A stretch of 32,000 nucleotides of DNA from Candidatus Saccharimonadota bacterium. Its GTDB lineage: Bacteria; Patescibacteriota; Patescibacteriia; 2-12-FULL-60-25. Below are positions 30,501-31,958 of the stretch, in pieces. The translations under genes and the position numbers were made by a program. Position 1 is the stretch's first letter, and every line of letters starts with the position of its first letter. A model generated the notes under the pieces. It worked only from the letters and a program-made list of their open reading frames with translations. It ran no database searches and had not been told where the DNA came from. The stretch covers positions 750,001-782,000 of the forward strand of contig OY970357.1 of NCBI GenBank assembly GCA_963718585.1. The letters run 5' to 3'.

Positions 30501-31958
30501 GGTCGCACTCCACGTAGACAGACCGGCCGCCGTACAGACCGAGGGAGGTGCCGCGACACGATCGTCATTCGGATCCGCCGGATCACCGAGGAAGGTCACG
30601 GTCCCAGGCGTGTCACCGAAGTTCACGCCGAGCAGGGTCACGAACGTCCCCGGGCGTCCATTGTTCGGACTCATCTGCGTGATGATCGGTTTGACGACGC
30701 AGACATTGCTCTGACAGAAACCGGAAGAACACTGACTGTTCGTGGAACACGTCCCACCGGTACACGCGCCGCAATACTCCGCACTCGATGGATCTCCACC
30801 ACAATCGATCCCGGTCTCGCCCTTATCCGCATCCAGCTTTTGGTTGAAACAGTGTTCTGCACGGACCACGACGTTCACGCCCGCGCTCTGTGTGACATTC
30901 GTATCCAGATCCGATGCGCTGGCGGTCAATGTGTGGGTCCCCAACGTGACACCGGCCGTATTCCAAAGGAGATGCGCCGTGAACGGGGTAAACGGAGGAC
31001 CCGCAGGTGCATCCATCCCGATCTGGGTGTTGCCATCCGCAGTCCCCTCGACCGTTGAGATCCCACTGTCATCGGTCGCATCCGCGTAGACGTCCTGCGT
31101 CAAACTGTTCACCGGCACAGACATCCCGTCTGTCGGGAACGTGACGCTCACCTGCGGCGGCTGCGTGTCAACGAGATCCCCCGTATGGAAATCCACCGTG
31201 CATGCTAAGGCGAATCCGCCGCACGTGACCGTCTGACCGCCGCTTGATTTGAGGGTCTTTGCGACCGTGACCGTGAAATCCGCATTGGCATCAAAACATT
31301 TCCGCGTCTGATTCGGTGCCGGACAATCTGCGGACGGGGTGAATGTCGCGAGACTCCCGCTCACGTCGACCGTTCCCCCCACGGGTGCGCCTCCTTCGGT
31401 CACGGTGATCGCGCCAGCGCTGGACGGATCGATGGCTTTGCTCAGCAGGATCTTTACCTGCACGTTCCGCAACGGAACATCCCCCTGCGGGGTGATGGAT
31501 TGGATGACAAAGACCTGACCCGGAGAACCGCCGCTGAATCCGCCGGTATACCCAGGACCCGTACCGCCGGTGACCGTTCCGCCGCTGGTCGTGGCCTGCA
31601 AGAGACGATCGATGACGAATCGCGCAATAGCCCAGGACGAAAGGATGATGATGAGTCCGATGATCGCATTACGAATGATCGCTTTGGCCTTTGTCGTCTT
31701 TTCCGCTTCCCCGCCCGAGGTCATGTACAGGAACCCGGCGTACAAGATGAGGACCACCATGATGATGGCCAGGAGCCCGAGCGCGACATTGATGAGATTC
31801 GCCGCGATGACACGCGGATCATTGTTCGGAAGCTTGATCGTCTGACCCACGGCGTTCAGCCCGGTATCGACCTGCGCATGGACCGGCGCAATGAGAAAGG
31901 CACCGGCGCCCGCGAGCGACAGACTGATCGTCAGGACAGTTAGCAGGCGACGGATCAT
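21507..31958 (-). CDS. Giant (~3,483 aa) cysteine-rich multidomain surface protein with an N-terminal T4SS-pilin-like membrane module
   Basis: One uninterrupted ORF of about 10.45 kb. The track starts at a TTG at 31982; the ATG at 31958 (MIRRLLTVL) is preferred. Recognisable protein-like modules run throughout (see sub-features and findings). All long ORFs on the opposite strand are Arg-rich shadows. Confidence 0.9.
   Translation of the reverse strand: [3483 protein letters not shown]
23115..24866 (-). repeat. Cys-rich repeat array 2 (seven CG[DN]G-type modules plus C-x-[ST]-D-x-[DE]-C knots, aa ~2373-2956)
   Basis: [97 protein letters not shown]. Interleaved with [31 protein letters not shown] and [15 protein letters not shown]. 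Confidence 0.7.
26988..27872 (-). repeat. Cys-rich repeat array 1 (six CG[DN]G-type modules, aa ~1371-1665)
   Basis: [111 protein letters not shown]. This resembles the Myxococcus cysteine-rich repeat (DUF4215 / TIGR02232) as I remember it. Confidence 0.7.
29538..30692 (-). repeat. Four tandem IPT/TIG Ig-like domains (aa ~431-815 of the giant protein)
   Basis: Each unit opens P-x-I/C-x-I/M-x-P-x-x-G and carries a G-x-x-F-G core: [90 protein letters not shown]. Confidence 0.75.
31599..31958 (-). other. Signal peptide plus two-helix VirB2/TrbC-type 'T4SS pilin'-like module of the giant protein
   Basis: [28 protein letters not shown] | QVD..., then [72 protein letters not shown]. The helix / MTSGG-x-EK-x2-KAK loop / helix layout matches my memory of the small CPR pilin family (Pfam T4SS_pilin, related to TrbC/VirB2). 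No HMM was run. Confidence 0.65.

Follow-up and report, generated by a model that had tools for sequence, protein, structure and literature searches.

The window, i.e. the whole stretch of 32,000 nucleotides that was analyzed, contains on the minus strand an open reading frame (21507..31958) whose translation is a giant protein of 3,483 aa followed by a stop codon, in which a signal peptide, a T4SS_pilin module, a Gly-rich linker and an ectodomain succeed one another in this order. The start codon is the ATG at 31958, a choice supported by the orthologues, which open at the same position with the same MIRR/MKRR, and by the ATGA in which this ATG overlaps the stop of the gene upstream. Amino acids 1-120 correspond to positions 31599-31958 of the minus strand; thus, the original prediction for this DNA had placed the pilin module at the correct coordinates and on the correct strand, and the peptide it quoted is an exact match to the translation.

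Of the upstream partner gene, only the last 14 codons are present (31955..32000, minus strand, by frame translation), ending in SPTSADCQTILQTP and the TGA that contributes to the ATGA overlap, and the rest is cut by the window end. This fragment matches the C-terminus, HPTSAECKTILNP and stop, of a 647-aa partner with PF18895 and Big_5 domains in locus L003, and the PNCC-x8-10-C tail is shared. A pilin+Big_5 partner of 585-795 aa is located directly upstream of the giant gene in about 50 of the 56 loci, usually overlapping it or at most ~30 bp away; in one sublineage (including L025), a free pilin of 159-184 aa lies between the two. Downstream on the same strand, the giant gene is immediately followed by genes for a 110-aa single-TM protein (21168-21500), a 375-aa membrane protein with bacterial TSP3 Ca-binding repeats (20028-21155) and a 448-aa membrane protein with such repeats and fn3 (18677-20023; domains from Pfam). 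Among 61 loci, 38-39 have homologues of the latter two downstream of the giant, the order of all three genes is identical in L003 and L004, and these genes (18677..21500) may be co-functional with the giant. The surroundings are housekeeping genes, S26-HisRS-S21-YqeY upstream and YbeY-DAGK-FtsA-FtsZ downstream, in a synteny that is fixed in at least 40 genomes. No T4SS genes (virB4, virB6, virB3) were found in the 32-kb window, and none within 10 kb of the pair in five Pfam-annotated orthologous loci.

Full-length orthologues of the giant (34-53% identity, 0.9-0.99 coverage) were identified in at least 56 species-representative genomes of Uhrbacteria and relatives. Judged by these alignments, the pilin-giant fusion is a conserved orthologous family and not a one-off. 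Neither this family status nor the second pilin-fusion gene at the window end figured in the original prediction.

The N-terminal pilin module

Amino acids 1-28 (31875..31958, minus strand) are predicted to form a Sec (type I) signal peptide with the cleavage motif VHA|Q because an n-region RR and a hydrophobic core (aa 4-27) precede a conserved AXA|Q motif, which is kept in most giants (45 of 49) and most partner proteins (49 of 51); in the orthologue alignment, A28 is invariant and Q29 is at least 90% conserved. These features agree with the cleavable-looking signal peptide that had been proposed. The mature N-terminal segment (aa 29-54; 31797..31874, minus strand) contains a short helix in the AlphaFold2 model (aa 34-40) and the conserved motif GL..VG...L...DPR.I, which precedes helix 1. 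The Pfam search yielded a match to T4SS_pilin (PF18895) at aa 51-115 (31614..31808, minus strand), with a score of 40.6 bits (gathering cut-off 26.6; E = 2.7e-10), comprising helix 1 (~aa 55-78), a loop (aa 79-92) and helix 2 (~aa 93-117), and a phmmer search with aa 1-127 returned 80 proteins (E down to 1.5e-42), 79 of which already carry PF18895. At the level of sequence, the resemblance of the module to PF18895 is well beyond chance, and the module very probably belongs to the T4SS_pilin family. The original prediction of a T4SS_pilin-type module, which was to be abandoned if no significant relationship to the VirB2/TrbC/T4SS_pilin families emerged, stands because the T4SS_pilin match is significant. 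The NCBIfam pilin-like model NF045849 (Mbov_0395) reaches 39.9 bits over aa 55-117 (cut-off 40).

In a Kyte-Doolittle scan with a 19-residue window, only three hydrophobic stretches were detected (aa 4-27, aa 48-83 and, merged from overlapping windows, aa 93-120), and the inter-helix loop carries 4 K/R with a net charge of +2. In the AlphaFold2 model, the short helix is followed by two long helices (~48-80 and ~85-125) that form a hairpin with pLDDT > 90. Hydropathy, loop charge and predicted structure thus bear out the two-helix hairpin with a basic loop, and the small stand-alone pilin-like proteins, said at the outset to be common, were found in large numbers among the relatives of the module. 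PF18895 comprises 81,020 clusters at 50% identity, and its members include proteins with 2-17 pilin modules in tandem in one chain.

The block of aa 51-100 is the best-conserved 50-residue block of the 3,483 aa (mean identity 0.64). Identity in the module is 60-80% among the closer orthologues and 41-44% among the most divergent ones, compared to 40-48% in the ectodomain, and the N-terminal segment outside the membrane and the loop are conserved as well. Mean module identity is 53% between giants, 49% between giants and partners and 47% between giants and free pilins; stand-alone CPR pilins of 120-170 aa are 45-55% identical to the module. Fused and free modules share a single common consensus, and the whole free-pilin sequence, including the post-helix 'L..AT' tail, is kept ahead of the linker.

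Linker and ectodomain

The module is followed by a flexible linker rich in Gly, Ser, Thr and Pro (aa 121-149; 31512..31598, minus strand), with AlphaFold2 pLDDT < 50 at aa 122-147. Across 49 orthologues, the 35 residues after the module are ~70% G/S/T/P/A/N, and linker and junction are conserved in position. The remainder (aa 150-3483; 21507..31511, minus strand) is a predicted extracellular region in which Pfam and NCBIfam models detect Big_5, Big_7, a Cys-rich knot and IPT/TIG repeats, the latter resembling CGTase domain D, along with myxo_disulf/DUF4215-type Cys repeats, large conserved blocks without annotation and, close to the C-terminus, a CarboxypepD_reg-like domain. AlphaFold2 models Ig-like domains in this region (pLDDT ~90), with Foldseek matches to plexin, SGBP-B, S-layer and PrgB Ig domains.

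No hydrophobic segment after aa 130 reaches the threshold (Kyte-Doolittle maximum 1.26), and the giant sequence has no LPXTG motif and no C-terminal anchor. Because the loop obeys the positive-inside rule, no later hydrophobic segment follows, the protein contains 166 cysteines and the folds are of the Ig, IPT and Big_5 types, the ectodomain (~3,360 residues) is likely to be located outside the cell, with an outward topology. Every available indicator agrees with the initial expectation that the ~3,350 residues after helix 2 are extracellular. Such a C-terminal add-on is geometrically compatible with a filament.

Possible functions of the fusion protein

We tentatively consider the giant to be a modular VirB2-like pilin, i.e. 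a complete small T4SS_pilin copy to which a ~28-residue linker and a ~3,330-residue disulfide-rich chain of Ig, IPT and Cys-repeat domains have been added, although for the full mechanism, including the pilin-assembly step, we would put the chances at slightly below even. Judging by the conserved motif, the protein would be inserted via Sec and cut by signal peptidase I at VHA|Q. The hairpin would then, very probably, reside in the cytoplasmic membrane as the sole tether of the giant, with the basic loop inside and both ends outside and, therefore, the whole ectodomain displayed outside. In the last step, the hairpin would act as a pilin-type assembly module rather than a passive anchor, packing with the modules of the upstream partner and of free small pilins, such that the giant might be included, as a minor subunit or at the tip, in a T4SS-type pilin assembly or in the membrane base of such an assembly, and might serve as an adhesin or host-contact protein. 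In favor of this modular-pilin reading, the module is the most conserved block, its extramembrane parts included, with the free-pilin consensus kept, and the genetics are array-like, with partner and giant in tandem and, in one sublineage, a free pilin between them. A pilin-anchored design of this kind, of which no description was found in the searchable literature, may offer the ultrasmall, host-dependent cells of CPR bacteria (Patescibacteria) a way to display a giant adhesin.

A possible but more doubtful explanation is that the hairpin, though derived from a pilin, has been recruited solely to keep a giant surface protein exported via Sec attached to the cytoplasmic membrane, where it may form a heterodimer with the hairpin of the partner, with no T4SS handling and no filament; to our knowledge, no PF18895 filament has been demonstrated experimentally. 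The lack of T4SS genes near the pair and the fixed housekeeping synteny favor such an anchor and weigh against assembly. The existence of polypeptides with 2-17 tandem modules implies that modules can remain in the membrane permanently, as a stable polytopic unit, without ever being extracted, which again favors the anchor. A ~370-kDa ectodomain on a ~9-kDa pilin would allow only a rare or terminal subunit, bulk entry of 3,360 aa into a filament being sterically implausible. Furthermore, of the 1,948 assemblies that contain VirB4 and have pilins, only 1,135 have a pilin gene close to virB4 (PMC12102498), and together with the 81,020 clusters this suggests that many PF18895 proteins may act independently of T4SS. 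However, mere anchoring needs hydrophobicity, not a particular sequence, and could be achieved with a single TM helix, but no other part of the protein is as well conserved as the module; and the tandem with a second pilin fusion, joined by a free pilin in some lineages, resembles a pilin array. The modular-pilin reading is also weakened by its slender tie to classical VirB2.

As to that tie, Pfam TrbC (PF04956) has no match in the window protein, no pilin was found when all PDB sequences were searched with a profile, and Foldseek on the hairpin returned nothing with E < 1, an archaeal conjugation pilin appearing only at rank 49. These results, together with the hhalign probability of only 36% given below and the NF045849 score just under its cut-off, favor the view that PF18895 is a CPR-specific family of small two-helix membrane proteins, 'pilin' in predicted name only, with a convergent likeness to VirB2/TrbC. 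This alternative is unlikely: 11 of 66 close relatives match Pfam TrbC (E down to 6.3e-8), hhalign against a profile of seven real VirB2/TrbC proteins (P = 3.8e-4 and probability 36% in a single comparison) aligns the pre-helix motif and both helices in register, pairing the aa 29-54 segment with 'TDPATMVNNI' of VirB2, the helix order is that of TraA, and such small proteins are encoded inside Patescibacteria T4SS clusters, where they are essential (PMC10633639, PMC12102498). The equation with VirB2/TrbC in the original prediction is thus only weakly supported, with the relatives and the in-register alignment in its favor and the missing PF04956 match and the 36% probability against it; the sequences only weakly suggest direct homology to Agrobacterium-type VirB2.

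An assembly or gene-calling artefact, in which a small pilin gene was joined in silico to a downstream giant gene via a frameshift or lost stop, could be suggested by broken ORFs in L025 and L036 and by one lineage in which the region is split into several genes: one for the partner, one for a free pilin, one of 1,584 aa and one of at least 2,033 aa. It is, however, extremely improbable and effectively ruled out by the 49 independent giant ORFs from different assemblies in which the order signal peptide, pilin, Gly linker and Big_5 is uninterrupted, an order that recurs in ~29 separate 50%-identity clusters (1,370-4,978 aa), and by the conserved position of linker and junction.

Comparison with known systems

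VirB2/TrbC pilins undergo head-to-tail cyclisation, which is incompatible with the C-terminal extension of the giant. Like VirB2 of Agrobacterium, TrbC of RP4 and TraA of F, the giant has a long signal peptide, predicted to be cut by signal peptidase I, and a short helix ahead of two long hydrophobic ones, the predicted order (short, long, long) being that of alpha1-alpha2-alpha3 in F pilin TraA (PMC5018250). In classical pilins, both termini are outside, and the basic loop faces the cytoplasm as long as the subunit is in the membrane and the lumen once it is in the pilus (PMC5018250); a basic loop and outward termini are likewise predicted for the giant. Unlike these pilins, the giant has an inter-helix loop that is 8 residues longer, belongs to a monoderm organism, is not adjoined by virB genes and consists of 3,483 aa rather than ~70-120 aa.

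VirB2-like pilin arrays are known and essential in Patescibacteria, in which no T4SS adhesin has been found (PMC10633639, PMC12102498). With the T4SS pilins described there (Wang et al. 2023 Cell, PMC10633639; Quinonero-Coronel et al. 2025, PMC12102498), the giant shares PF18895, the signal peptide, the DPR motif, the hairpin and the basic loop, as well as being encoded in tandem with a family member. Those pilins are ~100-170 aa long and many lie next to virB4, whereas the giant adds a 3,360-aa ectodomain, its partner adds ~500 aa, and the pair is surrounded by housekeeping genes, with T4SS genes absent up to a distance of 10 kb. Pilin-ectodomain fusions are not mentioned in PMC10633639 or PMC12102498; going by the methods given in the latter, its HMM-coverage criterion would probably count such fusions as plain 'VirB2'.

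The pLS20_p028 family (NF045890) and Mbov_0395 (NF045849, from Mycoplasma ICEs) are pilin-like hairpin proteins from monoderm conjugation systems, and the p028 model, 377 in length, extends beyond the hairpin into a larger domain. The giant is not a member of NF045890 (17 bits against a cut-off of 150) and is just below the cut-off of NF045849; both families, unlike the giant, are encoded within conjugative elements. Two-domain or tip adhesins of other pili, such as FimH of chaperone-usher pili, and the T4SS adhesins VirB5 and PrgB are comparable in that, as may be the case for the giant, a large Ig-rich adhesin is tied to a pilus or T4SS, and Ig-like domains of PrgB of pCF10 are among the Foldseek matches of the giant, although there is no sequence family relationship to any of the three. 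PrgB is attached to the cell wall via LPXTG, and VirB5 is soluble and forms a subunit of its own, whereas the giant, with neither LPXTG nor a C-terminal anchor, would be tethered only by its pilin hairpin.

Finally, in modular type IV pilins, such as PilB of Streptococcus sanguinis, an adhesive module is grafted at the C-terminus, which confers a binding function on the filament or assembly, and minor subunits are encoded with other pilins (PMC8179133). Type IV pilins are an unrelated superfamily that depends on a prepilin peptidase, and they have one N-terminal helix and a signal peptide of class III, in contrast to the predicted Sec type I signal peptide and the two-helix hairpin of the giant. 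The architecture is nevertheless alike, a complete pilin module being followed by an unrelated C-terminal module, which in the giant is approximately 10 times larger.

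A T4SS_pilin domain at the N-terminus of a giant protein

The minus strand at 31599–31958 encodes codons 1–120 of a 10.45-kb open reading frame (21507–31958, 3,483 aa); the original prediction was accurate in its coordinates, and the peptide that it quoted matches the minus-strand translation of 31599–31958 exactly. The ATG at 31958 is the real start of the giant gene, because the orthologues start at the aligned MIRR/MKRR position and because this ATG is shared with the stop codon of the upstream gene as an ATGA overlap.

The N-terminus alone matches Pfam T4SS_pilin (PF18895) at residues 51–115 with 40.6 bits (E = 2.7 × 10−10), above the gathering cut-off of 26.6, as the original prediction had anticipated; the whole giant scores 34.9 bits against the same cut-off. 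A family profile built in this analysis gives 163 bits. A phmmer search with residues 1–127 retrieved 80 proteins (best E = 1.5 × 10−42), 79 of them already annotated as PF18895, and the more distant matches are complete stand-alone proteins of 120–170 aa that end a few residues past helix 2 and are 45–55% identical to the window module. NCBIfam NF045849 (Mbov_0395, a Mycoplasma-ICE pilin-like conjugal transfer family; cut-off 40) is a borderline miss with the N-terminus alone (39.9 bits) and gives 33.4 bits on the whole giant. Judged by sequence, the pilin resemblance is real for the T4SS_pilin family. Typical PF18895 pilins are stand-alone proteins of about 100–170 aa; the giant has 3,483 aa, of which the module occupies only the first 120, and is therefore a domain-containing fusion, not a typical member.

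Some small T4SS_pilin proteins (P0004, P0006, P0013 and P0017) carry JGI names of the cytochrome oxidase or YgcG type, including 'heme/copper-type cytochrome/quinol oxidase subunit 2', 'cbb3-type cytochrome oxidase subunit 3' and 'YgcG'; such names probably reflect false annotation transfer caused by hydrophobic helices.

Conservation of the giant family

With residues 1–615 as the query, we found Patescibacteria proteins whose parts follow one another as in the giant, namely signal peptide, pilin, Gly linker, Big_5, Big_7, Cys knot and IPT/TIG, most of them cut by contig ends. Among 1.84 billion cluster representatives searched with a profile, 81,020 clusters carry the module at E up to 10−3; among the best 150 of these, about 29 distinct clusters comprise proteins of 1,370–4,978 aa with a single N-terminal module, and 12 of the latter align to the window protein over 89–99% of its length at 34–53% identity. 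When one genome per GTDB species was scanned with the ectodomain only (residues 150–560), the giant family was detected in 56 genomes labeled Ca. Uhrbacteria, Patescibacteria group, Magasanikiibacteriota, Parcubacteria, Minisyncoccota and, in many cases, 'uncultured Gammaproteobacteria'. The giant belongs to a family that has been conserved and is no isolated fusion. A gene-fusion artefact was rejected, the architecture being kept in about 50 genomes. The observation itself, a pilin module on a giant protein, is confirmed.

Of the genomes with this locus, which is clearly of CPR type, about half bear the record title 'MAG TPA_asm: uncultured Gammaproteobacteria bacterium' (e.g. CAZQUL010000001.1 and CAYRRZ010000004.1), apparently a systematic labeling error in that TPA batch.

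Topology and ectodomain

A 19-residue hydropathy scan of the giant revealed three hydrophobic stretches only (residues 4–27, 48–83 and, as overlapping windows, 93–120) and no hydrophobic window past residue 130, where the Kyte-Doolittle maximum is 1.26. The loop between the last two stretches contains four K/R residues and has a net charge of +2. The predicted signal peptide ends in AXA|Q, a motif found in 45 of 49 giants and in 49 of 51 partners (the products of the gene directly upstream); in the orthologue alignment, A28 is invariant and Q29 at least 90% conserved. The giant shows the PF18895 layout, in which a predicted Sec signal peptide precedes a hairpin of two hydrophobic helices joined by a short charged loop, and AlphaFold2 with the family alignment yields a short helix at 34–40 and long helices at 48–79 and 85–125, with a hairpin pLDDT above 90.

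In F pilin, both termini are outside, and the loop faces the cytoplasm while in the membrane and the lumen once in the pilus (PMC5018250). An F-pilin-like hairpin whose two ends are exposed, with all of the C-terminal mass outside the cell, would agree with several features of the giant: the AXA|Q signal peptide, the basic loop, the lack of any later hydrophobic segment and the Cys-rich content of the remaining 3,353 residues (166 cysteines); the outward topology originally proposed, with about 3,350 extracellular residues, is supported on the same grounds. No LPXTG or other C-terminal anchor is present in the giant, and the hairpin would therefore be its sole tether.

Two other surface-protein classes were rejected. 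A sortase (LPXTG) substrate is at odds with the lack of a C-terminal anchor or of a hydrophobic segment after residue 130. Type IV pilins have a class III signal peptide (G|F/M-x-x-x-E), a single N-terminal hydrophobic helix and a prepilin peptidase, whereas the giant reads MIRRLL...APVHA|QVD followed by two hydrophobic helices, with no G-F-x-x-x-E or class III signal peptide, so that a T4P/T2SS-type pilin was dismissed.

In the AlphaFold2 model of residues 1–615, the hairpin is followed by a disordered linker (residues 122–147, pLDDT below 50) and a string of beta-sandwich domains (pLDDT about 90). The best structural matches of these domains are plexin PSI/IPT ectodomains, Bacteroides surface glycan-binding proteins, PrgB Ig domains and S-layer proteins; Pfam and NCBIfam recognize Big_5, Big_7, myxo-type Cys repeats and a CarboxypepD_reg-like domain in the ectodomain. 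PADLOC (defence systems) did not match the giant. A PDB sequence search with the whole giant returned solely an IPT/TIG similarity to CGTase domain D; therefore, no enzymatic function is assignable to it.

Relationship to classical VirB2 and TrbC pilins

The tie of the module to classical VirB2/TrbC pilins is weaker than its tie to the T4SS_pilin family. The window protein has no match to PF04956 (TrbC) at E up to 1; among 66 close relatives, 11 match this family (best E = 6.3 × 10−8). In hhalign, the CPR pilin alignment and an alignment of seven annotated VirB2/TrbC genes are in register, pairing CPR 'DPR.I...IIN..LG' with VirB2 'TDPATMVNNICTFILG' and each of the two helices with its counterpart, but only at P = 3.8 × 10−4 and a probability of 36%. 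The VirB2 reference sequence is 99% identical to annotated Ti-plasmid genes. A PDB sequence-profile search with the module family gave only a spurious MtrG match (E = 0.28), and Foldseek with the hairpin model gave nothing at E < 1; the conjugation pilus of Aeropyrum pernix (8dfu) ranks 49th with a target-normalised TM-score of 0.63, a value to be read in light of the low fold information of a hairpin. We concluded that a two-helix hairpin carries too little such information to be classified by fold search.

Because the giant departs from typical VirB2/TrbC pilins in size and genomic context and direct homology is inconclusive, we file it as a fusion containing a T4SS_pilin domain, not as a typical VirB2/TrbC pilin. 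The original prediction, which saw a VirB2/TrbC-type module serving either to anchor a giant ectodomain or as a minor or tip adhesin, thus holds in part: T4SS_pilin membership, the domain fusion and the outward fit are supported, whereas neither the size nor the gene context is that of VirB2/TrbC, and a direct relationship to these pilins is only weakly supported.

A conserved partner gene and its neighborhood

In about 50 loci, the giant is directly preceded by an ORF of 585–795 aa, which overlaps it or is separated from it by up to about 30 bp and which begins with its own signal peptide and pilin module (Pfam PF18895 and Big_5). Genomes with the pair that are complete or nearly so include CP129476.1 (L052), CAZQUL010000001.1 (1.34 Mb) and JALNYW010000001.1 (784 kb). 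Within the window, only the last 14 codons of this partner are present (31955–32000, minus strand), and frame translation shows them to end in SPTSADCQTILQTP before the stop codon; in the nearest full locus, L003, the partner ends in HPTSAECKTILNP. A PNCC-x8-10-C motif is common to the partner tails. Gene order is kept in the window and in loci L003 and L004, with signal peptidase S26, HisRS, S21, YqeY, the partner and the giant followed by a small transmembrane protein, two TSP3-repeat membrane proteins, YbeY, DAGK, FtsA and FtsZ. Homologues of the upstream genes occur in 43–51 of 61 loci.

The TSP3 paralogues (18677–20023 and 20028–21155, minus strand), directly downstream of the giant in 38–39 of the 61 loci, each consist of an unstructured Pro/Thr-rich N-terminal half, one transmembrane helix and bacterial TSP3 Ca-binding repeats; they share a C-terminal domain, and one also has fn3. 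Between them and the giant lies the single-TM protein of 110 aa (21168–21500), and all three may share an operon or a function with the giant. The Peptidase_S26 (signal peptidase I) gene, 4–5 genes (about 4–5 kb) upstream of the partner, is conserved in 43 of 61 loci (L001–L003, L069 and most of L005–L060); it may be coincidental synteny or the processing enzyme for the AXA|Q sites of both fused pilins. Also in the window, a secreted M23 peptidase (8584–10416, plus strand; Pfam match at its residues 76–177) continues into three tandem Trp/Tyr-rich repeats of about 130 aa (...NWVYTC..P.STFE.GE.V.ALVRI.NVNANFRF...Y.DGVYQW...), for which Pfam has no counterpart and which may serve to bind the cell wall or a host.

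No second pilin module is present in the window. One sublineage has a free pilin of 159–184 aa between a partner of 585–655 aa and the giant, making three pilin genes (L069 10001–10504, P0023; a JGI 3300075153 contig, P0018; L025 2871–3425). The giant of L069 is divided between two genes, one coding for 1,584 aa and the other for at least 2,033 aa. Elsewhere, a Patescibacteria locus (L070 10001–13560, GCA_028711655.1) has seven consecutive free T4SS_pilin genes of 134–160 aa and an eighth about 7 kb upstream, with no virB4 within 10 kb; it illustrates that the 'VirB2 arrays' of the literature can lie apart from the T4SS cluster.

Anchor or assembly module

Module identity is 60–80% among closer orthologues and 41–44% in the most divergent, and the first 465 ectodomain residues are 40–48% identical in the same comparison. 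The most conserved 50-residue block of the entire giant is residues 51–100 (mean identity 0.64 in 13 full-length orthologues), and conservation of the module covers the extramembrane N-terminal segment and the loop. Mean identities are 53% between giant modules, 49% between giant and partner modules and 47% between giant and free modules; fused and free modules follow one consensus, and a neighbor-joining tree of 140 modules (giant, partner and free) did not resolve clades, with no class forming a separate one. The complete free-pilin sequence is retained in the fusion up to the 'L..AT' tail, beyond which lies a linker of 25–35 residues, about 70% of them G/S/T/P/A/N.

Such conservation indicates that the module is constrained more tightly than an anchor would need. 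From this conservation, the shared consensus and the retained full pilin sequence, we infer that the module would still make the contacts of a free pilin, with other modules, lipid or the assembly machine, either in a filament or in the membrane. We tentatively favor a modular minor pilin that would co-assemble with the partner and free pilins and display the giant adhesin. The main rival, a pilin-derived hairpin serving as a static anchor of the giant, is a serious if rather doubtful possibility; the tightness of the constraint speaks against it, whereas the size of the ectodomain is in its favor, as is the absence of nearby T4SS genes (virB3, virB4, virB6 and others), none of which was found across the 32 kb of the window or, for the five loci annotated with Pfam (L001–L004 and L069), at a distance of up to 10 kb. 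A static role is also favored by the existence of polypilins, i.e. polypeptides with 2–17 tandem T4SS_pilin hairpins behind one signal peptide and no signal peptides between modules, which account for about one-third to one-half of the top 150 profile matches (P0104, 552 aa, 6 modules; P0168, 1,147 aa, 11; P0170, 1,775 aa, 17; also P0108 and P0126). The tandem arrangement suggests that polypilin modules pack side by side.

Implications and comparison with known systems

The partner and the giant are a vertically conserved pair in which one pilin module carries Ig/Cys-rich ectodomains of 500 and 3,360 aa, a concrete candidate for the host-contact end of the T4SS/pilin machinery in a groundwater CPR class (Uhrbacteria and relatives). 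Cultivated Patescibacteria are, to our knowledge, all attached to host cells. A broader scenario, unlikely in its entirety, is that the T4SS-type pili which Patescibacteria would build from small VirB2-like pilins are capped or decorated by giant modular pilins: the pair would enter the filament or prime its tip through its own modules and give host recognition, which would make it both the 'missing adhesin' of the CPR T4SS and the first conjugative-type pilin of modular build, and polypilins would be pre-linked protofilament segments. The modular-pilin reading predicts that giant and partner occur in filaments and that their display is VirB4-dependent.

Patescibacteria have small VirB2-like pilins in arrays of 2–11, essential in Southlakia; Gram-positive T4SSs are normally without pilins, and no PrgB-like adhesin has been found in Patescibacteria (PMC10633639, PMC12102498, PMC12857230). 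Southlakia has the one experimentally studied Patescibacteria T4SS, of which both the system and the VirB2-like array are essential (PMC10633639, PMC12102498). Surveys that count PF18895 as 'VirB2 pilins' pool at least three architectures, namely free pilins, tandem polypilins and ectodomain fusions, and the supplementary tables of PMC12102498 give PF18895 matches without protein lengths. Literature searches on PF18895, VirB2 and TrbC in Patescibacteria/CPR returned no paper describing pilin modules fused to large ectodomains, and no mention of polypilins was found in the cited Patescibacteria T4SS literature; the domain pair is visible in database annotation, as a JGI protein named 'Bacterial Ig-like domain/Type IV secretion system pilin'.

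Compared with known conjugative pilins, the module of the giant has the same predicted helix order as F pilin TraA. VirB2/TrbC pilins polymerise into extracellular pili, with or without phospholipid. Unlike VirB2/TrbC, the giant lacks the setting of a T4SS cluster in the window, and unlike the cyclised P- and T-type pilins, it would hardly be cyclised, given a C-terminal extension of 3,360 aa. Conceptually, the giant comes closest to modular type IV pilins such as PilB of S. sanguinis (PMC8179133), which belong to an unrelated pilin superfamily.
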